Of a stretch of 58,344 nt of DNA, positions 8,102 through 55,240 are shown in pieces. The first letter of the stretch is position 1; each line of letters opens with the position of its first letter. The notes beneath the pieces are model-generated. The model had not been told where the DNA came from, made no database searches, and worked only from the letters and a program-made list of their open reading frames with translations. The stretch is from Eubacteriales bacterium. GTDB lineage: Bacteria; Bacillota; Clostridia; Oscillospirales; CAG-272. A program made the translations under genes and the position numbers. Location of the stretch: contig JAZSGY010000018.1 in assembly GCA_045532985.1 (NCBI GenBank), forward strand, positions 1-58,344. Direction: 5' to 3'.

Positions 8102-9585
8102 GTCAGGGGCGTCTTACACGCGGCGCGGGCGTGCTTTTGCCGATCTTTTCGCTCCCGTCGGACTACGGGATCGGTGCGATGGGCATGGCGGCGTACGGCT
8201 TCATTGATTTTCTCGTAGCGTCGGGACAGAAATATTGGCAGGTTCTGCCGATGGGACCCACCATTTTCGGTGACAGTCCCTATCAAAGCCCCTCCGCCTT
8301 CGCGGGCAATCCGTATTTCATTGATATCAATGCGTTGGTACGCGACGGATGGCTCTCCCGCATTGACAAAAATCTGCTCTATGCCGAGGATCCCTCGCGC
8401 GTCGATTACGCGCGCCTTTACCAAACGCGTCACCGCGTGCTGAGGCAGAGCTTTGAAGAAAGCATCAACCGTCTCGATCAAAGCTTCACGCAGTTTTGTA
8501 GCGATGCCGCGTGGTGGCTTGACGACTACGCCCTGTTTGCAACGCTGAAAAACGAGATCGGCGGCGGCGCTTGGACGGATTTTCCAAGCGATCTGCGAGA
8601 GCGTAGAGGGCGTGCGCTCCTCGCCTATAAGGAGGCACACGAGCGCGAGACCCTGTACCATAAATTCGTGCAGTATCTCTTCTTCTTGCAGTGGTCACGC
8701 GTGCGGGCGTATGCAAGGGAACGCGACGTTACGATCATCGGCGATCTTCCGATCTATCTTGCCTTTGACAGTGCCGACGTCTGGGCACGTCGGGAATTGT
8801 TTGAGCTGGATCCCGACGGCTTCCCCTCACGCGTCGCGGGCGTGCCGCCTGACCGCTTTTCCGAGGACGGTCAGCTTTGGGGAAATCCGCTTTACCGCTG
8901 GGACGTGATAGAGCGCGAGAATTTCGAATTCTTCCGCCGCCGCGCACAAAGCGCGGCAGAGCTTTACGACGTTTTGCGGATCGATCATTTTATTGGCTTC
9001 GTCAATTATTACGCGATCCCGCGGGGCGCCGCTACGGCGAGGGAGGGATGCTGGAACGACGTTCCCTATCGCGGACTCTTTGCCGCAATGGAGGAAGCTC
9101 CGCTTCGCTTTATTGCCGAGGATCTCGGCGTTTTAAGTCCGCGCGTAGAGCGGGCACTCACGGAGCTCGGCTACCCCGGAATGAAGATCCTTTCCTTCGC
9201 CTTCGATTCCGACCGTCAGAACGTCAATCTTCCGCACCATTTTACGGAAAATACCGTCGTTTACGGCGGTACGCACGACAATGAGCCGCTTCTTTCTTAT
9301 TTTGCCGCGGCATCGCATTCGGTTCTGGATTTTGCCGCGGATTACCTCGGCGTGCAAGAAAAAAGCCCCGCCGTGATCAGCGAGGCAATTATCAAAGCAG
9401 GGCTTCAAAGCCGTGCCGACGTTGCGATCTTTTCCCTTCAGGATTATCTCGGGATGGGGAGTGAATCGCGCATCAATACACCGTCGGTTATCGGTGGAAA
9501 TTGGTCGTTCCGCTTCGGCGTCGGCGATCTTTCAGAGGCTCTTTCGGAGCGGATGCGGCACCTTGCGGTGAGTGCAGGGCGTTAG
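8098..9585 (+). CDS. malQ: 4-alpha-glucanotransferase (amylomaltase, GH77)
   Basis: The start at 8098 (ATGA overlap with the permease stop) gives MSQGRLTRGAGVLLPIFSLPSDYGIGAMG. GH77 blocks are DLPIYLAFDSADVW, GVPPDRFSEDGQLWGNPLY, LRIDHFIGF and IAEDLG. The ORF-track start at 7882 lies inside the permease gene. Confidence 0.9.
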   Translation: MSQGRLTRGAGVLLPIFSLPSDYGIGAMGMAAYGFIDFLVASGQKYWQVLPMGPTIFGDSPYQSPSAFAGNPYFIDINALVRDGWLSRIDKNLLYAEDPSRVDYARLYQTRHRVLRQSFEESINRLDQSFTQFCSDAAWWLDDYALFATLKNEIGGGAWTDFPSDLRERRGRALLAYKEAHERETLYHKFVQYLFFLQWSRVRAYARERDVTIIGDLPIYLAFDSADVWARRELFELDPDGFPSRVAGVPPDRFSEDGQLWGNPLYRWDVIERENFEFFRRRAQSAAELYDVLRIDHFIGFVNYYAIPRGAATAREGCWNDVPYRGLFAAMEEAPLRFIAEDLGVLSPRVERALTELGYPGMKILSFAFDSDRQNVNLPHHFTENTVVYGGTHDNEPLLSYFAAASHSVLDFAADYLGVQEKSPAVISEAIIKAGLQSRADVAIFSLQDYLGMGSESRINTPSVIGGNWSFRFGVGDLSEALSERMRHLAVSAGR

Positions 9586-10562
9586 ATCCAGAGCAGGAGT
9601 GCCACAAGTGGCATCGTGCCGAGCGAGATCAGCGTGCTGACCGAGACCAGCTTTCCCGCATAGACCGAATCTCCGTCAAATTTCTCCGCAAACATCGAGG
9701 TAGCAGTCGCCGCAGGCGTCGCTGCGGAAAGCAGAATGACCGTCATAACGACGGGATCGTTAAAAACGGGGATCAGCATCAAGAGCTTGGTAACCGCCCA
9801 AACGATCGCGGGGGAGAGGATCATTCTGACGAACAAATAAATATACAGGTGAAGATCCTTGAAGGCACGCCGCCACTCCAGCTCTGCAAGACGCAGACCG
9901 ATCAGGATCATTGCAAGCGGCGCAACGAGTGCCTGCAATCCGTCGATCAGATCGTAGGGAACGCTTTTCAGCACGTCAATGAAACCGTACGCTGCGGGAA
10001 GCGGTGCCAGAAGACGGTTCAGCGGGGTCAAAAACAGAACAAGACCAACGTAGGTCGAAATGCTCGCGGGGTTCAAAAACATCTTGCGCGGGGACATATA
10101 GCTTCTGTCCTTCGTGTAAATAAAGCAACCGAGTGACCAGCAGAAGATGTTGAACACCATCACGTAGATCGAAGCGTAAATGGCGTATTCTGCGTTGAAA
10201 ATGGCACAGATCAGCGGAATACCCATATATCCCGCATTCGTAAAGACGGTCGCATATCGTAAAACGCGCAGTTGATTTTCCGGTCTGCCGCGGCGGTAGG
10301 TCAGAAACGCGATTGCGGTGAAGATCAGGTGGGTGATGAGCGAAAAGAGAAGGACAAGCAATGCACGCTTGAAAACCTCCATATCAAATTCGCGAATATA
10401 CCCCTTGATGATCAGTGCGGGCTGAGCCGCGTAAAGGATCAGATTGGAAAGGCCCTTGCCAAGACCGTCGGGCGCAAGCCTTGCCTTCGCCAGAAGAAAC
10501 CCCGGCACGATCATCAGCAGTAAGAGCGCCACCTTTGAAAAAAGAATAGAAATATCGATCAT
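9582..10562 (-). CDS. AEC (auxin efflux carrier) family membrane transporter
   Basis: 326 aa and about 10 TM, with a sequence pattern typical of the AEC/membrane transport protein family. A GAGGAG RBS lies 8 nt upstream. It is convergent with malQ and overlaps its stop codon by 3 nt. Confidence 0.75.
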   Translation of the reverse strand: MIDISILFSKVALLLLMIVPGFLLAKARLAPDGLGKGLSNLILYAAQPALIIKGYIREFDMEVFKRALLVLLFSLITHLIFTAIAFLTYRRGRPENQLRVLRYATVFTNAGYMGIPLICAIFNAEYAIYASIYVMVFNIFCWSLGCFIYTKDRSYMSPRKMFLNPASISTYVGLVLFLTPLNRLLAPLPAAYGFIDVLKSVPYDLIDGLQALVAPLAMILIGLRLAELEWRRAFKDLHLYIYLFVRMILSPAIVWAVTKLLMLIPVFNDPVVMTVILLSAATPAATATSMFAEKFDGDSVYAGKLVSVSTLISLGTMPLVALLLWI

Positions 10563-34314: not shown

Positions 34315-37029
34315 TTATTCTTCCTCTTTCTTTTTTCGTTTTTGAACGCGGCGGATGACGAGCTCCGTCGCAAGCGTACAGAACAGCAGGGAAAGACCAA
34401 TCCCCGTCAGAATATTGCCTGTTTTATATTCCTCGGGCGCGTAGTGCAGGGTGACGGTATGCTCGCCGTCGGGAATATCAAAGGCGAGCAGGGCGTCCAG
34501 CACCTCGTAGGTCTCTGTGGGCTTGCCGTCAACGCTGACCTGCCAGCCCTTATCGTAGGCGATCGTCGTCATCAGGGTGTTTGCACCGCTCTTGGCAGTG
34601 ACCGTACCCTCAATATGGGTGGGGGAGAAGTCGGTGATCACAAGACCGTTTTCCTTGAAGCTACCGAACACGTCACGGTAAAGGTCGGTATCGAGGGAGT
34701 AGATATATCCCTCCGTATGATCGAAGAATGCGCCGTCTTCATCGGTGATATTGACGGTGATCTCGCCCTTCGTTCCCGAGGGGATCCTGCCGAGTAGCTT
34801 TGTACCGCTCGTTTTATCGGTGAAATATTCGCCAAGCTCCGTGCCGTTATGTGCGATCGTTACGGTTCGGAAGTAGCAGCTGGGGGCAAAGAAGTAAAGC
34901 TCGCCCCCGTCGGACAGATAGGGGAGGGTCAGCGTGCCGCTTTCCCCCTCGGTCACGGTGTAGCGGTTGCCGCCGACGTAGAGGGAGCGCGTAAGGTTTT
35001 CGGTCTTGGTCCTGCCGCCTACCTTGGTAAAGAGCGAAACGCTCTCGCCGTACATCGCCGAGACGATCGCATTCATCTTCGGGAAGGGGGAGCCGTAGTC
35101 AGCGTAGATCATACCGTCAACGCGATCCTCGGCATCCTCGGGAACGTCGAGATGCAGCTTTCTTACCTCGTCGCTGACGGCACATCCGAGACCGAAGACG
35201 TAGGGGTTTTCGTAAATATCGACCTCGCCCACGGTCGTGACGTAGGTGTAGACCGAGGAGACGGGCTTGCCCTTTTCGGTAAGCAGATATTTGATATCAA
35301 GAAGACCGTCCGCAACGGCAGAGGAGCCGGCAGGATACATCGAATAATGCGATCTTGAAAGGATGCCAAGGTGATCGAGAAACGCGATCGTATCGAGATT
35401 GAGGGTTGAGGTCGAGCCGGAAAGCCCGTAGTAGCCGAGCGAGAAGGGCTCGTTCGTTTTCTTGCCGCCCGTTTTTTCCATGCGGTAAAAGCCGCCGTCC
35501 TTTTCCTTGACCGCATCGACAGCATCCTGCCAGTATTCCTGCACCTCGGTGTAGGAGGCACGGGAGACGATTACGACGTCCTGATCAAGGCAAAGACTCA
35601 TATAGAGCCCCGACAAAAGCGTCTCGAGAAGAACCGCCAAAAGCAGAAGACGGGAAAAGAGGCGTTTTTTGTTCGGAAATCTGCGAGAAAACAGGAGCAA
35701 AAAGCAGTAAAGCGCCAGAAAGATAGGCGATACGAGCAGAGTGATCCAGGCGTAGCGCCACACGTGATCAAAGACAGCCGCTAAGACGAGAACGAGAGCA
35801 TATACGGCGGCGACGGTCGGAAGGAAGGCGGCGCGTGCCCTTTTTACGTGCGCAAAGACCTCGCACGCCATAACGACGAGGAGAAAGGAGAGCATAAAGG
35901 CGTAGCGACAGTTCATCCAGATCGGCTCCTTGAAGCCGTGCCAGACGAGGTCGAGCATCCGAATCGAGAAGCACGCAAGGAAGCACAGCATCAGCACGCC
36001 GTGGCCCACGCGCTGGCGCAGAGGGATACTGCGACAGGCAAAATAGAAGGGTACAAGGAGGATCGTCAGCATACCGATATAGGATGCGGGAAGCCCCTCG
36101 GGGCGAAGCGTATCGTACGCACCAAAGAAGAATTTTGCGAAAATATCAAGCAGATCGAAGCGCGAGGTGAAGGTATAGATCGCCTCGGTAAATTCGGTCT
36201 TGCCGAAGGTCAGGGAATAATACGCGGGAAAGAGCAGGCACGCGGTGCAAAGCAGTGCGATCGCCGAGCAGGCGGCGACGCGCAAAACGGCAAACGGTAG
36301 CTCACGTACGCGACGCGCCCTCGCAAACCAATAGTAGAGCGAGTAAAGCAGAACGAAGATACAGAGCATATAGCCGATATAGTAGTTTGCGAACACAGCA
36401 ATGAGAAAGCTGAAGAGGTAGAGCTTGTAGCCTCTGCCGTCAATAAGACGCTCAAGTCCCAGAAGGATCAGCGGCAAAAGCGCGTAGGCGTCAAACCACA
36501 TCGTATTGCTTTGCAGCGTCATCACGAAGCCCGAGAGGGCGTAGAAGGTCGAGAAGATCAAAACGGCGGTGCAGCCTGCCTTGCGGCGGTATCGTGCGTT
36601 CAGATAGATGCCCGCAAAAAGACCCGAAAGACCGCATTTGATGAGAAGAATGAAGTAGATCGCTTCCGTGATCATGGATTTCGGGAAGAGTGCAACGAGG
36701 TAGGAGAGTGGGCTTGCAAGATAATAGGCGAACATGCCCGTGAACTCACCGCCCATTGCGCGGGAGAAGGAATAGACGAGCGAGCCCTCGCCGTAGATCC
36801 AATCGCGGAACGCCTCGAAATAATAGACGTATTGGGCGTTGAGGTCAAGCACCAGCACAGAGCCGCCAACCCCGGGCAGACACCCCCACGCGGCGAAGAT
36901 GATCATCATCAGAAGAAAAGGGGTGGCGAAGCAGAGCGCAAGATATGCGTTCGGTCGCCGCGCGTGCAGATCTGCAAGACGGTCACGGACGACTCCGTAG
37001 CGGGTTTTCAGGTTGTCACGGATCTTCAT
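34315..37029 (-). CDS. YfhO family membrane protein (GT-C-type glycosyltransferase-like)
   Basis: 904 aa with more than 10 N-terminal TM, a large extracytoplasmic domain and one C-terminal TM. The block is GSLVYSFSRAMGGEF...ASPLSYL...LLIKCGLSGLFAG. Its stop lies 1 nt from the ruvA start. Confidence 0.85.
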   Translation of the reverse strand: MKIRDNLKTRYGVVRDRLADLHARRPNAYLALCFATPFLLMMIIFAAWGCLPGVGGSVLVLDLNAQYVYYFEAFRDWIYGEGSLVYSFSRAMGGEFTGMFAYYLASPLSYLVALFPKSMITEAIYFILLIKCGLSGLFAGIYLNARYRRKAGCTAVLIFSTFYALSGFVMTLQSNTMWFDAYALLPLILLGLERLIDGRGYKLYLFSFLIAVFANYYIGYMLCIFVLLYSLYYWFARARRVRELPFAVLRVAACSAIALLCTACLLFPAYYSLTFGKTEFTEAIYTFTSRFDLLDIFAKFFFGAYDTLRPEGLPASYIGMLTILLVPFYFACRSIPLRQRVGHGVLMLCFLACFSIRMLDLVWHGFKEPIWMNCRYAFMLSFLLVVMACEVFAHVKRARAAFLPTVAAVYALVLVLAAVFDHVWRYAWITLLVSPIFLALYCFLLLFSRRFPNKKRLFSRLLLLAVLLETLLSGLYMSLCLDQDVVIVSRASYTEVQEYWQDAVDAVKEKDGGFYRMEKTGGKKTNEPFSLGYYGLSGSTSTLNLDTIAFLDHLGILSRSHYSMYPAGSSAVADGLLDIKYLLTEKGKPVSSVYTYVTTVGEVDIYENPYVFGLGCAVSDEVRKLHLDVPEDAEDRVDGMIYADYGSPFPKMNAIVSAMYGESVSLFTKVGGRTKTENLTRSLYVGGNRYTVTEGESGTLTLPYLSDGGELYFFAPSCYFRTVTIAHNGTELGEYFTDKTSGTKLLGRIPSGTKGEITVNITDEDGAFFDHTEGYIYSLDTDLYRDVFGSFKENGLVITDFSPTHIEGTVTAKSGANTLMTTIAYDKGWQVSVDGKPTETYEVLDALLAFDIPDGEHTVTLHYAPEEYKTGNILTGIGLSLLFCTLATELVIRRVQKRKKKEEE

Positions 37030-37213
37030 TCGAAATCACCTTTCGAATGGATTTTTCGAGCGTTTCACGCGGCAGAAGGAGATCGCGGCCGCAGCCGACG
37101 CATACGATGCGGATATCACTGCCCGTCCGCAGAACGCGGAAGTGTGTGTTGCCGCAGGGGTGCTTCTTTTTCAGCTCGAGCGTATCGCCTACGTTAAAGC
37201 GAATGATCTTCAT
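37016..37213 (-). CDS. DUF951 family small protein
   Basis: 65 aa: MKIIRFNVGDTLELKKKHPCGNTHFRVLRTGSDIRIVCVGCGRDLLLPRE. An AGGAG RBS lies upstream. It overlaps both flanking yfhO genes (20 nt and 14 nt). Confidence 0.8.
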   Translation of the reverse strand: MKIIRFNVGDTLELKKKHPCGNTHFRVLRTGSDIRIVCVGCGRDLLLPRETLEKSIRKVISNEDP

Positions 37214-39563
37214 CCTCTGCTCCTTTCTTTTTCAAAACGGTTCGTTCACAAATGCAGTATCCTGCAATCAGCACCAATGAGCATACCGAAAGAACCAAGC
37301 CGACGGTAGCTCCGCGTGCGCGGTAAGTCAAGGTTACGGTATGCGCGCCCTCCTTGATCGGGAAGGTGATATAACCGTCCCGATCCTGCGTGAAGGGAGT
37401 GCGCTCCCCATCAATTTCAAGAACGAAGTGTCCGTCAAACGGGATAGACGTGATCGCTTGCATATCCGACGGGGCAAGAAGCTCCGCTGTGATCCTCGCA
37501 CCGTCGCGTCCGACGGTGGACGCCGTGTCAGAGAGCAGGGAGAGGGCGGTATCGACGTCCTCCTCCGATACGGTAAAGAAGGGGGAGAAGTTGTCGGGGA
37601 AATAAAGGATCGCGCCCTCGTTGAGCGTAAGAGAGATCAGATATTCCTCGTCCTCCTCGGGCGTTCCGATATAAAGAGCGCCGTTCTTATAATCGAGGGC
37701 GGTGCCGTTGACCGTCAGGACGAGGCTCTGCTTTTCGGGAGAGGGAAGCTCGAAGTAGAGCGCGTCGCCGTTGCCCTTGACCGAGAACAGCATAAAATCC
37801 TTTGGATTTTCCGCACGGTACAGCGTATATCCCTCTACCGTTTGTTGCTCCAGCTCGTCCAGAAAGTTTTCGGGTCTTGCGTATGCAGGCACCGTTACGG
37901 GATCGGCAAGTGAAAAGGGGGTGTCGAGGATCGCCGAGAGTCGCTCATTCACACGGGCGGCGGCGGATAGAGAGGAGATCGTCGAGCCGACTCCGCAGGC
38001 GTACGGTGTCGCACGCAAAAAACGGGAAAGAGGATCGGCTGCCGTATTTGCAGAGGAGGTGACGGATTGAATAAGGACGTCGACGGCTTGCAAACTCGGT
38101 GCGCGGTCAAGCGCAAGCGTATCCTCTACGTCCCCGTACGGCTCTGCCGTGCGCTCGTATAACAGATTTTTCGAGAGGGCATACGCGCAAGAAAAGGAAG
38201 AGATGCATACGGCACAAAGGAGGGCGACGGCGGTATATCGGCGCAGTTTTGCCGACGTGCGCTCAAAGCCGATATAAAAACAGACGGTGACGGCAAGCCC
38301 CGAAAGGATCGGGAGCCACACGCCGTAAATATCGTGAAGGACGAAGTAGGTAAGCTGATCGGCAGAGGGAAATTCAACGTGTAGCTTTTGAAAAAGCGTC
38401 AAAAGGAGAAGCAGACCGCCGAAGGAGCATAAAACGACGGCGCGTCCGCGCGCGCTTGCGCGGCGGGGCATCGCTTCGGATACGAATAAAAGTGCAAAAA
38501 AGAGCAAAAGAACGCTCCCGTATGGCGGAAGATATCCAAACGCAAGGTTAAACGACAAAACTTTATAGATCGGAAAAAGTACGACGCCCGACAGAAGAAT
38601 GAAAAGGAACGCCCCCGACGCTATGCGGCGAAGGAGCGGGAGTCGCTTCGTCGCGAAAAAGACGGGCAAAAGCAAAAGCACGGGCGTGCCGAGCGAGAGT
38701 AGAAGCGCGCCCCCCTCAAAGGGTACGAAGCTGCCCGAAAAAAGCGTGGTCAAAGCAGATGAAAAAGGAATCGTGAACCAACGGAAATCTGCGGTTACCG
38801 ACCGCTCCGCATACAAAAGGAGCGCAGGAATGACACAGACAAGCGAGAGCGTCACGCCGCCGACGGTAAAGCCTAGCGTGTAGAAAAGCGTCGATCTGCG
38901 AAAGGATGCCGATGCAAAGGCATATAGAAGAAGGATCGCAAAAAAGAGGATCGCGCGCGGCTCGGATGCGAGGGCAAGCGCAAGCACGAGCGCGTAGACA
39001 ACGCCGAATCTCCTTTCTCTTGCAAGCAAAAATGTGAGAAAAAGCAAGGGCAGATAAAGTGCGAAATCAGAATAAACGAGCGCAGAGGCAAGCGAGAGCG
39101 TGGGAGCGCCCAAGGCGTAAAGAACCGAAAAGATCGGCAAAAAAGCAATCGGCAGGCGCGAGGCGCGACGTAAAAGGAGAGCGGTGAAAAGTCCTGCAAA
39201 TCCGCATTTTAATGCGGAAATCAAGGATAGCGCCGAGACGATCCCGCTTTCCTTAACGAGGATCAAAAGGTAAGAGAAGGGCGAGGCGGCGATGGAGAGC
39301 ACGTCCCCCGAAGCTGCACCGCCAAGACCTGCGGCGTAAAAAAGCGAGCCACCGCTTTTCAGAAAACGGTGAAAGGCGACGTAAGAGCGGAAGAGCCCGT
39401 CGTCCGCAACGAACGCGGTCTGCTCACCAAAGGGGGCGATATCAAAGCGCAGGAGCAAAAGCAGATACAGAAAAAAGGGAAGGAGAAAGCACGCCGCGTA
39501 CACGCCGTATTTCATTGTGCAGGGAACGCGGCATCGGGAGATCCTTATCGTCAATTTCTTCAT
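37194..39563 (-). CDS. YfhO family membrane protein, paralogue of 34315-37029
   Basis: It has the same architecture as the other yfhO gene and alignable blocks (GGSLFYAAGLGG...ASPFSYL...LISALKCGFAGLFTA). I chose the start at 39563 (MKKLTIRI) because GGAG lies 6 nt upstream. The alternatives 39584 and 39515 cannot be excluded. Confidence 0.75.
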   Translation of the reverse strand: MKKLTIRISRCRVPCTMKYGVYAACFLLPFFLYLLLLLRFDIAPFGEQTAFVADDGLFRSYVAFHRFLKSGGSLFYAAGLGGAASGDVLSIAASPFSYLLILVKESGIVSALSLISALKCGFAGLFTALLLRRASRLPIAFLPIFSVLYALGAPTLSLASALVYSDFALYLPLLFLTFLLARERRFGVVYALVLALALASEPRAILFFAILLLYAFASASFRRSTLFYTLGFTVGGVTLSLVCVIPALLLYAERSVTADFRWFTIPFSSALTTLFSGSFVPFEGGALLLSLGTPVLLLLPVFFATKRLPLLRRIASGAFLFILLSGVVLFPIYKVLSFNLAFGYLPPYGSVLLLFFALLFVSEAMPRRASARGRAVVLCSFGGLLLLLTLFQKLHVEFPSADQLTYFVLHDIYGVWLPILSGLAVTVCFYIGFERTSAKLRRYTAVALLCAVCISSFSCAYALSKNLLYERTAEPYGDVEDTLALDRAPSLQAVDVLIQSVTSSANTAADPLSRFLRATPYACGVGSTISSLSAAARVNERLSAILDTPFSLADPVTVPAYARPENFLDELEQQTVEGYTLYRAENPKDFMLFSVKGNGDALYFELPSPEKQSLVLTVNGTALDYKNGALYIGTPEEDEEYLISLTLNEGAILYFPDNFSPFFTVSEEDVDTALSLLSDTASTVGRDGARITAELLAPSDMQAITSIPFDGHFVLEIDGERTPFTQDRDGYITFPIKEGAHTVTLTYRARGATVGLVLSVCSLVLIAGYCICERTVLKKKGAEDEDHSL

Positions 39564-39677
39564 AACTGCTCCAAACGGTTTCAAGGTTATTTACATAAAT
39601 ATAATTATACGCGTATTTGACGCCGATGTCAAGCAAAAGAATCGGCTCGGAAAATTATTTTTTTCAGCAGACGGATT

Positions 39678-49593: not shown

Positions 49594-49603
49594 AGAGGTG
49601 CAT

Positions 49604-50560
49604 ATGGCAAAACGCTTTGAAAAAAACGCACGCGTTGGGTTTATCGGTGACAGTATTACCGCCAACGGTCTTTTCGTTGCATACCTTTTTGATTATTATC
49701 AAACGCATTTTCAGGAGGATCGGGTCAAGCTGAACGGTGCGGGGATCCCCGGCGGCGCCGTATGGACGGCAGAACAGTATTTTGATGACTTTTTGCGTTT
49801 TGATCCAACCCACGCCGTTATTATGCTGGGAATGAACGATATCTGGCGCGGACACTATGCGGAAAATGCAACTCCCGAAATGGTGGCGCAAAGAAAAGAG
49901 CGCATCCCGATCTACAAGGAGGGAATGGAGAGGCTGATCCAAAGGCTTCTTTTGCTCGGGATCGGCGTTACGCTCTGCTCTCCGACACCCTATGACGAGG
50001 GGCTACTGACCGATGTCGAATGCCTGCACGGATGTGCCGACGCCCTGCGCCTTTGCAGTGAAATTTGCCGCCGCCTTGCCGAAAAATACGGGCTTGATTT
50101 CATCGACCTCAATACAGAGCTTTGCGCTTTGAACGAAAAATTACACGTGATCGACCCGAAGCTGTCGGTTGAAGGACCCGACCGCGTGCATCCGCACGAT
50201 CTGGGTCACGCGGCAATCGCGCGCGTCTTTTTGCGCGCGCAGGGATTCAAGGACGTCGCGCCCCCGACTCCCGAAGGAATGATCGACGGCACCGTCGCGA
50301 TGCCGCTGTGTGACAAAGGACGCCGCCGTCTTGAATCCGAGCGTATCATTCGCGAGATCTACGTGGGGGAGGCGCATCTTCTGCGTGAGGATTATCAGCT
50401 CTCCGTAGGGGAGAGGATCGCACGCGTGGAAGCAATGAAGGCACGCGGCTATACCTCGGATTTTCAAAAACGGCTGGCTGAGCATTATCTCACCTACAAG
50501 TCAAGGGAGGATGCGCTCTACCGTGAGCTGTTGCAGCTGACGGATGCTCTTTACGAATAA
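49604..50560 (+). CDS. SGNH/GDSL family hydrolase
   Basis: The start at 49604 (MAKRFEKNARVGFIGDSITANG) follows an AGAGGTG RBS. SGNH blocks are I (GDS), III (GMNDIW) and V (DRVHP). Confidence 0.8.
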   Translation: MAKRFEKNARVGFIGDSITANGLFVAYLFDYYQTHFQEDRVKLNGAGIPGGAVWTAEQYFDDFLRFDPTHAVIMLGMNDIWRGHYAENATPEMVAQRKERIPIYKEGMERLIQRLLLLGIGVTLCSPTPYDEGLLTDVECLHGCADALRLCSEICRRLAEKYGLDFIDLNTELCALNEKLHVIDPKLSVEGPDRVHPHDLGHAAIARVFLRAQGFKDVAPPTPEGMIDGTVAMPLCDKGRRRLESERIIREIYVGEAHLLREDYQLSVGERIARVEAMKARGYTSDFQKRLAEHYLTYKSREDALYRELLQLTDALYE

Positions 50561-50596
50561 AAAAAGGAAAGCAGATTCTTCTGCTTTCCTTTTTTG
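50559..50596. terminator. bidirectional rho-independent terminator between convergent SGNH genes
   Basis: A 10-bp stem pairs ggaaagcaga with tctgctttcc. It is flanked by A6 and T5 tracts. Confidence 0.8.
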
Positions 50597-50611
50597 CGCG
50601 TTTTTGGGTTT

Positions 50612-51409
50612 TTACCACTTCGCACCGACGTTATGAAAGGGCTTGCCGATGAAGCCGACCTGCGCAAAATCCTCAGGGTTGTGACGAACGATAAAATCTA
50701 TATAGCTTTCTACCATCCGTGCGGTCAGGGCGTAGCCTGCGGCATTCAAATGACCGCCAAGATAGAAGCGACGCTTGAATTCATCGTCATAAACGGGCGC
50801 GTATTGATAGAGGTCGATGACGTAGGAATATTCAAAGTATTCTGCGAGGGCGTACATCAGCTCGCGGTGCTGTAAGACCGCCGTTTGATCCGCGTGACCG
50901 TCGTTCGGGAAGGTCATAAAGAAGAATTTTGCCTTCGGCTGCATGCTTTTGATGCGCTGCACGATCTGCGCGTAATAGCCCGCAAAGGACTTTTTATTCT
51001 GCGTGTAATCCTCTTTACAGATATCGTCAACACTGCCGGTCTGTTGCTTCTGGTTCAGAATATCGTTGACACCGAGCGCCATAATGTAAGCTTGACAGAG
51101 CTTGCTCGGGTTCCAAAAATCCATATCGCGCGCAAAGGACTCGCAATATGCCTTCGCAGTCATACCGCCCTTTGAGAAATTGTAGACGGTAGCCCCCGTG
51201 CTACGTGCGATATACTGTCCCCAGGAATACTCAAAATAATCGTGGTAGCCCTTTTGACCTGCCTCGTTGAGCGACTCAAATTCACCGGAGGAAAGGCTGT
51301 CTCCAATACAGGCAACGGTGCGGAAAATACTGCAAAAGCCGCCGTCTGTGACGATCCTGTCAAGCGGCTTTTCGTTTGGATCTGATTTGATATACTCGTG
51401 TATGTTCAT
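50612..51409 (-). CDS. SGNH/GDSL family hydrolase
   Basis: The start at 51409 (MNIHEYIKSD) has an AAGGAA RBS upstream. SGNH blocks are I (ACIGDSLSSG), III (GVNDIL) and V (GGHLNAAG). Confidence 0.8.
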   Translation of the reverse strand: MNIHEYIKSDPNEKPLDRIVTDGGFCSIFRTVACIGDSLSSGEFESLNEAGQKGYHDYFEYSWGQYIARSTGATVYNFSKGGMTAKAYCESFARDMDFWNPSKLCQAYIMALGVNDILNQKQQTGSVDDICKEDYTQNKKSFAGYYAQIVQRIKSMQPKAKFFFMTFPNDGHADQTAVLQHRELMYALAEYFEYSYVIDLYQYAPVYDDEFKRRFYLGGHLNAAGYALTARMVESYIDFIVRHNPEDFAQVGFIGKPFHNVGAKW

Positions 51410-51544
51410 ACCATCATTCCTTTTTTGTGATCTTGAATTGTTTGAAGAATCAGCGGTTACGGTCAGTTTAGCACAGAATCGAAAATCTGTCAAGTTCAAA
51501 ACCTCGGAAAAACGTCAAAAAACCAGTTTTTATACTTTATATAA

Positions 51545-51573
51545 TTGACAAACAGAAAAAACAGTGTTATAAT
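51545..51573 (+). promoter_or_regulatory. consensus sigma-A promoter with extended -10, upstream of the TIR-LRR gene
   Basis: TTGACA (51545-51550), exactly 17 nt, then TGtTATAAT (the -10 is at 51568-51573). It lies 35 nt upstream of the ATG. Confidence 0.7.
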
Positions 51574-51607
51574 GTAGTATCAATTCTATTAAAATGGGGT
51601 AATTATT

Positions 51608-53266
51608 ATGGCAGATCAGACTGCAAAAGCAACGAACGAAACCGTTTCGACGGCGGAGGAATTTCCGTTGATCCAAACTAAATTTGAGGCTTATACCGGT
51701 GGCGAACCGTATCTTTTCGTGAGCTATTCTCATCGGGATACGGCGAAGGTGTATCCTATTTTGGACGCCTTGCACGATAAGAAATACCGCATCTGGTACG
51801 ATGAGTCCTGCGAGAACGGAAACGATTTCAGAGATGAGCTTCGCCATAGGATCGAGGGGTGCTCTGCGGTCGTGCTGTTCGTTTCCAAGGCATCTATGTC
51901 CTCTCCCTTCTGCGGTATGGAGATCATTGTAGCGCGTGAAAACGGAAAGAGACTGTATCCGATCTATTTGGATGACGTTACCTCGGTTCCGCCCGCATTC
52001 GAGATCCTCCTCGCGAATACCCACCACAGCACGACGGAGAATATGGATAAGCTGATGAAGTCCATGGTCAGAGATCTTCCCGCAGAGGCGATGGACAGAT
52101 TGACCTTGTGTGACGGAAAACTTGAAAAATGCGAGGATAACGGTAAAATGATCGACGTCGACGAAGGTGTTCGTGTGATATGTGCTGGCGCATTCAAGGA
52201 CAGAAAGCAATTACATAAGATCACTCTCCCCGAGAGCTTGGAGGAGATCGAGGCCGAGGCATTCCGCGGTTGTAATAATCTTGAGGAAATGCACATTCCT
52301 CAAAAGACCGTACGCGTCGGCGAAAGTGCGTTCCGTGACTGTGTGAATATGAAGAAGCTCACGGTCGAAAACGATTGCATCAAAATCGGCGAGCGTGCCT
52401 TTGAAAACTGTGCAACGCTTGAGGACGTGAAATTGCCGGACGGACTCACAGAGCTTTACGGTGGCGTTTTTAACTCTTGTAAGAGTCTGAAATCCATCCA
52501 TCTGCCCTCAAATCTTACGATCATCGGCGAAAACGCCTTCTCGGACTGTGTCGGTCTTGAAAAGGTTGTGATTCCGGATACCGTTACCAAAATCGACGAC
52601 CTGGTATTTAACGGTTGTATCAATCTTACCTCCGTCGAACTTCCGAACGGTGTCAGAAAGATCGGCAAGAGTGCGTTTAAAAACTGCAAATCATTGACGA
52701 AGGTTACGATCCCCACCTCTGTGATCAGCATTTCCGATGCTCCCTTCAGAGGCTGTGAGAACCTGAAATCCATTAAGGTTGAACCGAAGAATATGCACTA
52801 CAAGTCGGAGCCGAACAAGCGCGACGGTAGCGATTTCGTTCTGTTCAATAAAAACAAATCCACGCTGATCGCATATCCCGCCAACAGCCGTGAGGTTCAG
52901 TACGACGTTCCCGACAGCGTAACCGTGATCAGCGACTGGGCTTTCTGCGACAGCAAGAAGCTGAACCGTATCACGATGCCCGACAGCATCCTCGAGATCG
53001 GTGAGGGAGCTTTCTGCAACTGCGCCCTGCTCGATGAGATCGAGATCCCCGACAGCGTTGTGAAGATCGACGATTGCGTATTCAGGGGCTGCACCAGCCT
53101 TGATACCGTCATCATTCCCGATTCCGTCAAGGATATGGGTTGGGGCATTTTTGACGGTTGCGAAGACAAGGTGGTCGTTTACTGTAACGAAGGCTCGCTT
53201 GCACAAGAGTACTGCCGCCGTAACGGAATCAAAGAGGCTCGTATTTCTGAAAAGAATGAAGACTGA
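51608..53266 (+). CDS. TIR domain / BspA-type leucine-rich-repeat fusion protein (cytoplasmic)
   Basis: 552 aa. The TIR blocks are YLFVSYSHRD, RIWYDE and VLFVSKASMSSPFCGMEI (Glu105 is codon 51920-51922). Thirteen LRR_5-like units of about 23 aa follow (IGxxAFxxCxxLxxVxIP). There is no signal peptide and no TM segment. Confidence 0.85.
   Translation: MADQTAKATNETVSTAEEFPLIQTKFEAYTGGEPYLFVSYSHRDTAKVYPILDALHDKKYRIWYDESCENGNDFRDELRHRIEGCSAVVLFVSKASMSSPFCGMEIIVARENGKRLYPIYLDDVTSVPPAFEILLANTHHSTTENMDKLMKSMVRDLPAEAMDRLTLCDGKLEKCEDNGKMIDVDEGVRVICAGAFKDRKQLHKITLPESLEEIEAEAFRGCNNLEEMHIPQKTVRVGESAFRDCVNMKKLTVENDCIKIGERAFENCATLEDVKLPDGLTELYGGVFNSCKSLKSIHLPSNLTIIGENAFSDCVGLEKVVIPDTVTKIDDLVFNGCINLTSVELPNGVRKIGKSAFKNCKSLTKVTIPTSVISISDAPFRGCENLKSIKVEPKNMHYKSEPNKRDGSDFVLFNKNKSTLIAYPANSREVQYDVPDSVTVISDWAFCDSKKLNRITMPDSILEIGEGAFCNCALLDEIEIPDSVVKIDDCVFRGCTSLDTVIIPDSVKDMGWGIFDGCEDKVVVYCNEGSLAQEYCRRNGIKEARISEKNED
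52163..53191 (+). repeat. protein-level tandem array of 13 BspA/LRR_5-type leucine-rich repeats within the TIR-LRR CDS
   Basis: The recurrent AF/VF-x-x-C-x-x-L cores are GAFKDRKQL, EAFRGCNNL, SAFRDCVNM, RAFENCATL, GVFNSCKSL, NAFSDCVGL, LVFNGCINL, SAFKNCKSL, APFRGCENL, WAFCDSKKL, GAFCNCALL, CVFRGCTSL and GIFDGCEDK. The units have diverged at the DNA level. Confidence 0.75.
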
Positions 53267-53283
53267 TCCCATCGGAGGAAGTT

Positions 53284-54426
53284 ATGAGCGCTCTCGTTAA
53301 AATTAAGAATGCGGTATTTGGCTTCGTAAAAAAAGAAGTTGTATTATCCATTGCCATTATTGCTGCAATTATTACCTGCTTTTTCGTACCGCCCGACATC
53401 GAGTACCTGGGCTATTTCGAGGAAAAGACCCTGATCGCCCTGTTCTGTATGCTATCGGTCGTCGCGGGCTTGAAGTATACGGAAGTATTTGAGTTGATCT
53501 CAAAGAAGATGATCGGTCTGTTTCATACCAGAAGATCCGTAATATACGCGTTGGTTTTCGGTACGTACTTCTTTGATATGATCGTTGCCAACGATATGTC
53601 ACTGATCACCTTCCTGCCGCTTGCGTATATCGTTATGCACTCCACAGGCAACGATAAGTATTTGGGCGTGACCTTCATCCTTATGACGATCGCGGCAAAT
53701 ATGGGAGGTATGATCACTCCTTACGGCAATCCGCAGAATTTGTATCTGTTCTCCTTCTACGAAATGGGCTTGCTGGATTTTCTGTCCGCTTTGGCGGTGC
53801 AGGCGGCGACGATCCTCGTGATGCTGTTCATCAGTGGATTGTTTATCAAAAACGAAGCCTTGCATCTGGTGAACGATAAGGAGCTTAACATCAAGAAAAA
53901 GAAGCTCACCGTTTACGTTTTGCTGTTCGTTATCGTGATTCTGTGCATATTCCGCGTGATCAACCATTGGATCGCGCTGGGAATCGTTGTCTTGACGATC
54001 CTGATCATGGACAGAAAGCGTTTCAAGGAGGTCGACTACGCACTTCTTGCTACGTTCTGCGTATTCTTCGTTTTTTCGGGCAATATCGCAAGAATAGAAG
54101 TCATCAGCGATTTCATTAAGAGCATTGTTGGCGCAAGCGGGGAAAACGTTCTGATAGCGGGTATCGTTTCCTGTCAGTTCATCAGCAACGTTCCTACTGC
54201 AATATTTCTTTCGAAATTCACCGACGTTGCGTATGCCGCCGATCTTTTGGTTGCAGTCAACGTTGGATCACTGGGCATTATCATTTCCTCTTTGGCAAGT
54301 CTTATTACCTTAAAGGAATACTTGAAGCATCAGCCGAAGGGCTTTAAGCGCTATATGCTGATGTTTACGGGAATCAACACGGCATTTTTGATCGTGCAGC
54401 TGTTGGTTACGTTTTTACGGCATTAA
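53284..54426 (+). CDS. ArsB/NhaD-superfamily (citrate-transporter-like) anion permease
   Basis: 380 aa and about 10 TM. Blocks are ANMGGMITPYGNPQNL and VDYALLATFCVFFVFSGN. A GGAGGA RBS lies upstream. It starts 17 nt after the TIR-LRR stop. Confidence 0.75.
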   Translation: MSALVKIKNAVFGFVKKEVVLSIAIIAAIITCFFVPPDIEYLGYFEEKTLIALFCMLSVVAGLKYTEVFELISKKMIGLFHTRRSVIYALVFGTYFFDMIVANDMSLITFLPLAYIVMHSTGNDKYLGVTFILMTIAANMGGMITPYGNPQNLYLFSFYEMGLLDFLSALAVQAATILVMLFISGLFIKNEALHLVNDKELNIKKKKLTVYVLLFVIVILCIFRVINHWIALGIVVLTILIMDRKRFKEVDYALLATFCVFFVFSGNIARIEVISDFIKSIVGASGENVLIAGIVSCQFISNVPTAIFLSKFTDVAYAADLLVAVNVGSLGIIISSLASLITLKEYLKHQPKGFKRYMLMFTGINTAFLIVQLLVTFLRH

Positions 54427-54443
54427 ACGAAAAATGTATAATA

Positions 54444-54478
54444 ACGAGGGGCGACCGTCACGGTCGCCCCTCGTTTTC
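54444..54478 (+). terminator. strong rho-independent terminator after the permease gene
   Basis: A 14-bp GC-rich stem pairs acgaggggcgaccg with cggtcgcccctcgt around a 3-nt loop and is followed by TTTT. Confidence 0.85.
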
Positions 54479-54577
54479 GTTATAAAGGGAATAGAAAAAT
54501 CCAATTTTCCGTCTTTGCCAATATATTTCTTCTTCATTTGGGAAATAATAACGGTGAGTACAAAAACGGAGGTATAT

Positions 54578-55240
54578 ATGTTCAAACACGAAAAACAGTT
54601 ATTCCATCCCGTAGGGGTCGAAAGAGCAAACCCGCAGTATGCGGTTCTTCTTCAGGAGCAGCTTGGCGGCGGTAACGGGGAGCTGAAGGCGGCAATGCAG
54701 TATATGTCGCAGAGCTTCAGGATCAAGGAGCCCGAGATCAAGGATCTGTTCCTCGATATTGCCGCAGAGGAGCTGGGGCATATGGAGATGGTGGCGCAGA
54801 CGATCAACCTGCTCAACGGCCACGACGTGGACGCAACGAAGGTGCAGGCAGGCGAGGTGCAAACGCACGTTCTGCTTGGACTGAATCCCGGGCTGATCAA
54901 TTCCTCGGGATATTCGTGGACTGCGGATTACGTTACCGTCACGGGTGACCTTTGCGCCGATCTGCTCTCCAACATTGCGTCCGAGCAGAGAGCCAAGGTG
55001 GTTTACGAATATCTCTACCGTCAGATCGAAGACAAGAAGGTCAGGGAAACCATTGATTTTCTTCTCAATCGCGAGGAAGCGCACAATCAGATGTTCCGCG
55101 ATGCCTTCAACAAGGTACAGGAAACAGGCTCCAACCGTGATTTTGGCACGACCAAGGCGGCAAAAATGTATTTTTCCATGTCAAACCCCGGACCGAACGC
55201 ATTCGCAACGGGTGAAACTCACGCGCCGTCATTCAACTGA
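54578..55240 (+). CDS. manganese catalase family protein
   Basis: The start at 54578 (MFKHEKQLFHPV) follows a GGAGG RBS. The di-Mn ligand blocks are GGGNGELKAAMQYMSQ and AAEELGHMEMV. 220 aa. Confidence 0.85.
   Translation: MFKHEKQLFHPVGVERANPQYAVLLQEQLGGGNGELKAAMQYMSQSFRIKEPEIKDLFLDIAAEELGHMEMVAQTINLLNGHDVDATKVQAGEVQTHVLLGLNPGLINSSGYSWTADYVTVTGDLCADLLSNIASEQRAKVVYEYLYRQIEDKKVRETIDFLLNREEAHNQMFRDAFNKVQETGSNRDFGTTKAAKMYFSMSNPGPNAFATGETHAPSFN

Follow-up and report, generated by a model that had tools for sequence, protein, structure and literature searches.

Is a bacterial protein that joins a TIR domain to leucine-rich repeats (LRRs) a sensor and effector complete in one polypeptide, or is it one subunit of a larger module? 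This question is raised by a gene, hereafter TIR-LRR, in a stretch of 58,344 nucleotides (nt) of DNA from a Eubacteriales bacterium (GTDB CAG-272; contig JAZSGY010000018.1), which we refer to as the window. A preliminary description of the locus had proposed a single-polypeptide sensor-effector and had overlooked a permease gene that begins 17 nt downstream. Our results argue against that proposal: the two genes form an operon, the pairing recurs in related loci and in distant members of the family, and it is recovered by reverse look-ups. The TIR domain carries an active-site signature of the kind found in enzymes that cleave nicotinamide adenine dinucleotide (NAD). We interpret the pair as a Thoeris-like module, in which the TIR domain would make an NAD-derived nucleotide signal acting on membrane partners, a plausible reading that we hold tentatively. 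The elements of the operon are listed here in the order of their coordinates.

51545..51573, forward strand: promoter, TTGACA-17 nt-(TG)TATAAT, which agrees with the consensus at 12/12 positions and has an extended -10 TG

51608..53266, forward strand: TIR-LRR gene, read as an open reading frame (ORF) with an ATG start and encoding 552 amino acids (aa)

53274..53279, forward strand: GGAGGA ribosome-binding site of the permease gene, 4 nt before its ATG and within the 17-nt intergenic spacer

53284..54426, forward strand: ArsB/CitMHS permease gene, 380 aa, assigned by Pfam CitMHS; the operon partner

54443..54475, forward strand: intrinsic terminator, a 15-bp stem (11 G-C pairs) ahead of a T-run

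Since a promoter precedes TIR-LRR, no terminator was found between the two genes, the spacer holds a ribosome-binding site and a terminator follows the permease gene, the pair constitutes a bicistronic operon. The permease is a member of the CitMHS/ArsB/NhaD ion-transporter superfamily: it matches Pfam CitMHS with E=5.6e-26 (91.9 bits, cutoff 31.9), has a weak match to NhaD (29 bits versus an equivalog cutoff of 80), and scores below the cutoff of the ArsB models. It has about 10 transmembrane (TM) segments, judging from the ten hydrophobic segments counted in the 94%-identical orthologue of locus L001. A single-sequence search of the PDB with the permease gave no match, and a search of the operon in the window against Rfam, made to find a riboswitch or leader RNA, gave only three sub-threshold chance matches.

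The evidence for a lasting association comes from relatives. A scan of species-representative genomes identified 46 loci, all on contigs of metagenome-assembled genomes, in which an orthologue matched TIR-LRR over most of its length at 68-89% identity; all of them belong to gut or rumen Clostridia labelled Acutalibacteraceae, Oscillospiraceae or similar. A permease gene lies 3-64 nt downstream on the same strand in 38 of these loci; of the eight without one, two are contig ends. No other neighbor of the pair in the window is retained in the relatives. Three permease subtypes keep this position, namely c1 (68-94% identity), a class at ~45% identity and the ArsB-like c10. When the search was reversed and started from two permease homologues, TIR-LRR was found directly before both. 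The association extends to distant family members: P0243, with 47% identity in the TIR domain, has a CitMHS gene 20 nt downstream, and in P0300 the gene order is swapped, with an ArsB/CitMHS gene immediately upstream of TIR-LRR. Pairwise identities of TIR-LRR and permease are correlated (r=0.60, 595 pairs), TIR-LRR evolving more slowly (mean identity 72% versus 54%). Across at least 46 lineages of gut Clostridia the two genes have been inherited together while their flanks changed. The partner is occasionally replaced, by the non-homologous membrane protein c16 at L027 and L045, and by a 511-aa DHH phosphoesterase downstream of the distant member P0239 (locus L070).

The surroundings of the distant members differ from one another. 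At L070, the gene before TIR-LRR encodes a Ser/Thr kinase of 1097 aa that also contains ankyrin repeats and an SH3_3 domain. The P0300 locus (L068/L069) encodes, in order, an uncharacterised protein of 817 aa, a 1416-aa Transglut_core protein, the ArsB/CitMHS permease, TIR-LRR, a 1098-aa TIR_2 protein and a 1013-aa Tubulin_2 protein, and looks like an elaborate multi-gene system. At the P0243 locus (L067), a trio of a c2-like gene (c2 is described below), TIR-LRR and CitMHS is preceded by an Endonuclea_NS_2 nuclease, a GH25 lysozyme and a protein of more than 1135 aa, a context that is possibly toxin- or prophage-like and differs from the housekeeping genes flanking close orthologues.

The TIR-LRR protein itself is composed of the following parts.

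51704..52012, forward strand: TIR domain (residues 33-135), from Pfam TIR_2, an AlphaFold2 model and structural matches

51920..51922, forward strand: GAG codon of E105, the predicted catalytic glutamate, from phmmer alignments to solved structures; F101 lies four residues upstream

52013..52138, forward strand: linker and N-terminal LRR cap (residues 136-177), from AlphaFold2 secondary structure and conservation

52139..53233, forward strand: BspA/LRR_5-type solenoid (residues 178-542), from Pfam LRR_5, a 23-residue register and Foldseek

52829..52888, forward strand: 20-residue insertion (residues 408-427) after unit 10, breaking the repeat register

Both domain assignments are far beyond chance, with TIR_2 (PF13676) matching residues 37-130 at E=8.3e-18 (65.5 bits, cutoff 28) and LRR_5 (PF13306) matching in three stretches at E=5.8e-82 (272 bits, cutoff 27.7). 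The Pfam model ThsB_TIR passes its cutoff narrowly (23.2 versus 21.2 bits), while the NCBIfam models ThcB4, a Thoeris TIR (19.8 bits), and HupY/LrrG, an adhesin matched over part of its length (128 bits), fall far under their cutoffs of 220 and 1250 bits. The full-length AlphaFold2 model has a mean predicted local distance difference test score (pLDDT) of 86.4 and a predicted template modelling score (pTM) of 0.69, and the LRR part exceeds a pLDDT of 90. The same architecture is common to more than 120 clusters at 74-100% identity; no paralogue of TIR-LRR was found in the window.

The TIR domain looks catalytically competent, as its NADase-type signature consists of an invariant glutamate, E105, and an aromatic residue at -4. 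In phmmer alignments E105 pairs with the glutamate of the W-x-x-x-E motif in AbTIR (8g83/7uwg), BtTir (7uxr), AtTIR (3jrn) and RPP1 (5teb). Among proteins of solved structure, none matches the sequence better than AbTir and BtTir (7uxr at E=0.0096; 8g83/7uwg), and their aligned residues, E208 and E230 respectively, are the catalytic ones, the E208A mutant being inactive (preprint 10.1101/2022.05.07.491051). E105 is invariant in 34 of 34 full-length orthologues, whose TIR domains have a mean identity of 83%, and in the model it stands at the start of helix alpha-C (residues 104-111). AbTir and BtTir produce 2'cADPR, an isomer of cyclic ADP-ribose (cADPR), and a tryptophan at the position of AbTir W204 correlates with cyclase activity (preprint 10.1101/2022.05.07.491051). 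The corresponding residue here is Phe101, likewise aromatic and at least 90% conserved. Apart from this difference, AbTir and BtTir combine their TIR domain with a coiled coil rather than with LRRs, and their identity to the present domain is ~20%.

Structure comparison leads to the same assignment. A model of the TIR domain (residues 25-180; pLDDT 84, pTM 0.81) gave 94 Foldseek matches in the PDB at E<=1e-3, and the best 50 of the 94 are all TIR domains. The best of them are enzymatic TIRs, namely SARM1 (E=5.6e-7), AbTir (7uxu, TMt 0.74), RPV1, RUN1, Roq1 and the SPARTA TIR-APAZ protein; RPS4, RPP1 and BtpA are also among the matches. A word-indexed homologue search with the TIR domain gave fragments of the same family and one match at 35% identity. 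Relatives outside the family surfaced only in an exhaustive search of representatives, in which 13,700 representative clusters reached E<=1e-3. The nearest of these (P0177-P0311) carry 2-7 tandem TIR domains in proteins of up to 2,330 aa, several with at least one predicted TM segment.

Between TIR domain and solenoid there are only ~45 residues, and no NB-ARC, NACHT or other STAND NTPase was matched there by Pfam. The linker and cap form a short helix (146-156) and a beta-hairpin (strands 165-168 and 171-175) in the AlphaFold2 model and contain the invariant block D156-L157-P158...M162-D163-R164-L165-T166. The solenoid, for which thirteen repeats had been counted in the preliminary description, comprises 15 units that keep strictly to a 23-residue register; 12 of the units are canonical, and the first, tenth and last are degenerate. 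The insertion after unit 10 is a highly conserved beta-hairpin with an invariant VLFNKNKS motif. Foldseek matches of the solenoid are the LRR_5 proteins 4gt6, 4fs7, 4h09, PcpA and TpLRR (E=2e-15 to 1e-7, 26-28% identity). Variability within the protein is highest at the concave LRR positions, and the repeat-specific lateral face (repeat positions 13, 15-17, 20 and 21) is strongly conserved, being as constrained as the hydrophobic core. This lateral face is likely to bind a fixed partner.

The protein is predicted to be cytoplasmic, as no TM segment, signal peptide, lipobox or cell-wall anchor was found in it (maximum KD19 of 1.19) and none of 120 homologues has a signal peptide, a TM segment or an LPXTG motif (N-terminal KD12 maximum 1.12). 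It contains 23 cysteines, a number that we read as fitting a reducing cytoplasm. The domain-level reading in the preliminary description has therefore held up, from the fusion itself and the active-site glutamate to the LRR_5 class, the cytoplasmic location and the lack of a STAND NTPase; nor is there any partner of a named TIR system (SIR2/SLOG, CD-NTase, STING, Argonaute or reverse transcriptase) nearby. What has given way is the view that this one polypeptide is the whole system.

Relatives reveal a larger ancestral operon, which bears on the nature of the putative signal. In 20 loci, TIR-LRR is directly preceded by a gene for a protein of ~640 aa, c2 (for example at L001:8076-9986), with a gap of -4 to 26 nt in 19 of the 20. 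This protein combines TM segments at the N-terminus with a TrkA_N-like region and, at the C-terminus, an RyR domain. A search of the PDB with a c2 profile recovered RyR-domain structures (E=5e-6), where the search with a single sequence gave no match; among the 20 sequences, Pfam reports RyR in six (best E=6.5e-5) and TrkA_N in three. RyR/R12 (PF02026) domains have been described to bind or hydrolyse TIR-made 2'cADPR and 3'cADPR by means of His, Trp and His residues and an acid (PMC13232231, 2026 preprint). Invariant residues of c2 include H543, W546, H584 and D604, which may match the ligand residue types of RyDEP, the mapping being drawn from motif spacing, not from structural alignment. The likeness to the RyDEP/RyR (R12) proteins (PMC13232231) is thus one of RyR signature and conserved His/Trp/His; RyDEP is a small soluble phage anti-defence enzyme, whereas c2 (637 aa) is a membrane protein of the host, bears a TrkA_N-like region and is encoded in a TIR operon.

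Two further genes belong to the longer arrangement. In 10 loci c2 is preceded by c3 (L001:3622-7998, 1459 aa), which has five N-terminal TM segments and, towards its C-terminus, a Cys-rich motif followed by HELTH (HExxH), and in six loci the operon before c2 includes c4 (L001:1589-3622, 678 aa), with two TM segments near residue 470-510. Neither was assigned to a family by Pfam, PADLOC or NCBIfam, apart from a weak DUF6055 match around the HExxH motif, and a PDB search with the c3 C-terminus gave no informative match. Promoter positions follow the presence of c2: a promoter matching at least 11 of 12 positions lies upstream of TIR-LRR in 15 of 24 loci without c2 (12 of these perfect) versus none of 20 loci with it. 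Loci with and without c2 are two configurations of one module, and the window holds the short one.

The family does not evolve in the way expected of a typical defence gene. At L027 and L045, RpoD encoded on the same locus is 74-75% identical and TIR-LRR 72%. Ratios of nonsynonymous to synonymous substitution rates (dN/dS), estimated from the 11 pairs with unsaturated dS because dS is saturated in most pairs, are 0.09 for the TIR domain, 0.05 for the LRR core, 0.05 for the lateral LRR face and 0.28 for the concave face. We considered positive selection on the concave face and rejected it on these values, and there is no sign of an arms race in dN/dS. Five species of one clade carry the pair at the same place, behind an upstream block of genes that is itself conserved, and matches in the flanks include the signal peptidase II and pseudouridine-synthase families. 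Taken together, TIR-LRR looks vertically inherited. The G+C contents of TIR-LRR (0.50), the permease gene (0.45) and the window (0.52) were also considered as a possible trace of recent transfer and give no clear sign of one.

How does this locus compare with systems already known? TIR domains fused to repeat sensors are a recognised architectural class (PMC9153377), and a survey of E. coli TIR systems notes that LRR features are seemingly absent from the bacterial TIR systems studied (PMC11350192). In the literature searched we found no description of a bacterial TIR-LRR_5 fusion or of a TIR-permease operon. The closest parallel is Thoeris, for which a TIR gene adjacent to a TM or ion-channel effector in a two-gene operon is an established layout, with 29 putative types (preprint 10.64898/2025.12.03.692087). 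Here, too, a TIR gene with a catalytic-type glutamate adjoins a membrane-protein gene within a short operon, the score against Pfam ThsB_TIR lies marginally above its cutoff, and the neighbor in relatives carries RyR, a domain shown to recognise Thoeris signals. The differences are considerable: the TIR domain is fused to a large LRR, its partner is an ArsB/CitMHS permease without a known signal-binding domain, no SLOG- or Macro-type effector is adjacent, and the RyR protein of the 20 relatives is not a described Thoeris effector. The Thoeris survey required enrichment in defence islands and mentions no LRR, RyR-domain effector, permease or transporter partner (preprint 10.64898/2025.12.03.692087); the present family lacks a defence-island context, stays far below the thresholds of the PADLOC and NCBIfam Thoeris models, and looks vertically inherited.

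Other systems share single features. Plant TIR-type nucleotide-binding LRR receptors (TNLs) and animal Toll-like receptors (TLRs) unite TIR and LRR in one polypeptide, and the plant TIRs RPS4, RPV1, RUN1, Roq1 and RPP1 are among the structural matches. In TIR-LRR, however, the repeats recur every 23 residues and belong to the BspA/LRR_5 class of bacteria, and the order is TIR then LRR with ~45 residues between. TIR-LRR is not a TNL, another nucleotide-binding LRR receptor (NLR) or an Avs protein, because it has no NB-ARC/STAND NTPase, and it is not a TLR, because it has no TM segment or extracellular LRR. The BspA-type LRR_5 proteins of gut and oral bacteria recovered by Foldseek have the same repeat class and fold; several are described as cell-surface proteins, unlike this cytoplasmic protein with an N-terminal enzyme domain, which is no BspA adhesin because it lacks an export signal. 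BcTir/BcTpr (preprint 10.1101/2023.05.26.542521) also couples a TIR domain, within a two-gene operon, to solenoid repeats that serve sensing or regulation, but there the tetratricopeptide repeats sit on a separate protein, whereas here the LRR is fused to the TIR domain and the second gene encodes a permease.

From these comparisons we infer that TIR-LRR may be the cytoplasmic, signal-generating sensor subunit of a two-gene, membrane-associated module. The LRR would hold the TIR domain inactive until a trigger is bound; TIR domains would then self-associate and convert NAD+ to an ADP-ribose (ADPR)-derived nucleotide, possibly depleting NAD+ as well. The nucleotide would act on the co-encoded membrane partners, that is, the permease here and additionally the RyR-domain protein in relatives, and the flux of ions or anions across the membrane would change.

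Several observations weigh against this Thoeris-like module. With F101 in place of AbTir W204, the Trp associated with cyclase activity, the product could be plain ADPR. The permease has no recognisable soluble nucleotide-binding domain, CitMHS being its only Pfam match. No homologues of c2, c3 or c4 were found in the window, a search of its six-frame translation with the c2 profile giving nothing; because the RyR gene is absent from the window, the strongest hint at a cADPR-type signal comes from the relatives. PADLOC gives only weak TIR-only matches to the protein (ThsB models at E=2e-5 to 0.03), and TIR-LRR belongs to no PADLOC system. Purifying selection acts on all site classes, the concave LRR face included. 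Phage and plasmid collections contained no family members, only generic LRR-only matches below 40% identity, and IMG/VR gave none. Finally, no defence-island setting was found: 148 ORFs taken from the flanks of 41 loci are for the most part housekeeping genes, and PADLOC matches among them are sparse, none covering more than three ORFs. The preliminary description had named the absence of such an association beforehand as speaking against its proposal, and its caution in treating defence as conjecture while leaving a regulatory role open was justified. We regard a chromosomally fixed infection or stress response and a non-immune signalling pathway as about evenly balanced, since the evolutionary data lean towards the non-immune role, whereas prior knowledge of bacterial TIRs leans towards the immune one.

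The immune role could also be filled without the permease, if the LRR recognised a phage protein, the TIR domain depleted NAD+ and the cell died, the permease being unrelated or dispensable. The intact catalytic glutamate and the variable concave LRR positions would suit such stand-alone abortive infection. Single-protein TIR systems defend E. coli (PMC11350192), and a phage protein directly triggers SpbK-type TIR NADases (PMC12847820). The linkage to the permease, however, has outlasted changes in flanks, permease subtype and gene order, and a concave-face dN/dS of only ~0.28 is not positive selection. Flanks without defence-island enrichment, absence from phages, plasmids and IMG/VR, and divergence about as slow as that of RpoD also stand against it, so that we consider this explanation unlikely, though not negligible.

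Somewhat less probable in our view is one particular non-immune form of signalling, a vertically inherited second-messenger pathway in which an LRR-gated TIR cyclase would make a cADPR-type nucleotide that is received by the RyR membrane protein and leads to control of an ion or anion permease. If true, it would be a prokaryotic counterpart, and possibly an antecedent, of the animal cADPR-ryanodine-receptor axis, with the window holding its minimal two-gene form.

The direction of signalling could also be reversed, with the permease importing a small molecule that the cytoplasmic LRR senses and that switches on the TIR domain, by analogy with NOD receptors, whose ligands are supplied through SLC15 transporters. 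A gene pair tightly coupled in an operon and inherited together would be expected in this case, the permease has no signal-binding domain and so is no obvious effector, and the conserved repeat-specific lateral face of the LRR fits a fixed ligand or partner. Nevertheless, no LRR_5 domain is known to sense small molecules, and the RyR-domain partner points to a nucleotide signal downstream of the TIR domain. The downstream partner is moreover replaceable, by c16 at L027/L045 and by a DHH protein at L070, which fits interchangeable effectors better than a specific importer. We therefore give the permease-as-input scheme a low probability.

Lower still, if only slightly, we place a non-enzymatic role, in which TIR domain and LRR would serve solely as protein-interaction modules that attach to the permease and modulate it, in the manner of accessory regulatory subunits of other transporters. 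Housekeeping-like conservation under strong purifying selection, a lateral LRR face constrained to a dN/dS of 0.05 like the hydrophobic core, and a consensus promoter suggestive of constitutive expression would all be compatible with such a subunit. An invariant catalytic glutamate and surrounding motif are not needed in a scaffold, however; the closest structural matches are enzymatic TIRs, and the family is associated with RyR and, once, DHH, both nucleotide-handling domains.

Brucella BtpA/TcpB is reported to act as a TIR effector against the TLR signalling of the host, and a secreted or surface host-interaction factor of this kind, or a BspA-like adhesin, is suggested by the gut commensal source (relatives from gut metagenomes, a bile-salt-hydrolase-family gene in the window), the resemblance of the LRR to cell-surface LRR_5 proteins with the partial HupY/LrrG match, and BtpA among the structural matches, but it is very improbable given the lack of any signal peptide, TM segment or LPXTG motif in the protein and 120 homologues, cysteines suiting a reducing cytoplasm, a HupY score far below its cutoff, and an operon partner that is an inner-membrane permease, not a secretion system.

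The whole window is core chromosome, encoding topoisomerase, GH77, P-type ATPase, YfhO, an HflX-type GTPase, dGTPase-DnaG-RpoD, Mn catalase, choloylglycine hydrolase and PurC; no tRNA genes were found in it. The YfhO-family membrane proteins (904 and 796 aa) are encoded by two tandem genes on the minus strand at 34315-39584. The choloylglycine (bile-salt) hydrolase gene (55334-56284, CBAH E=1.7e-93) follows the operon at a distance of 0.9 kb and is consistent with a gut origin of the organism. The longest ORF of the Mn catalase (54434-55240) would overlap the operon terminator at 54443-54475; because its Pfam match begins at residue 49, its true start is probably a Met near 54575. A 2.0-kb segment with two divergent GDSL-hydrolase genes (window 49594-51595) is missing from the close relative L047, which to either side of it runs colinear with the window at 92-94% nucleotide identity. 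In L047 this segment is replaced by 438 unrelated bases (9551-9988), with a breakpoint 12 nt before the TIR-LRR ATG. The perfect promoter is present there as well, with a leader of ~135 nt versus ~35 nt in the window, and no Rfam family was found in the 135-nt leader. We also considered NAPRTase, an enzyme of NAD salvage, as a direct neighbor of TIR-LRR, since it occurs in the flanks of two loci, and rejected it, the direct upstream gene at L020 and L029 being transglutaminase-like.

Bacterial TIR enzymes are understood almost entirely as mobile anti-phage parts, found by way of defence islands. The TIR-LRR family stands apart in four respects: its TIR domain is fused to LRRs, a combination otherwise seen in immune receptors of animals and plants; it is encoded in an operon with a transporter; its conservation among numerous uncultured gut Clostridia resembles that of a housekeeping gene; and it lies outside defence islands, so that screens based on such islands would miss it. 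The system allows testing whether host-encoded RyR domains act as receptors of TIR signals, and whether bacterial TIR signalling reaches beyond immunity to the control of membrane transport.

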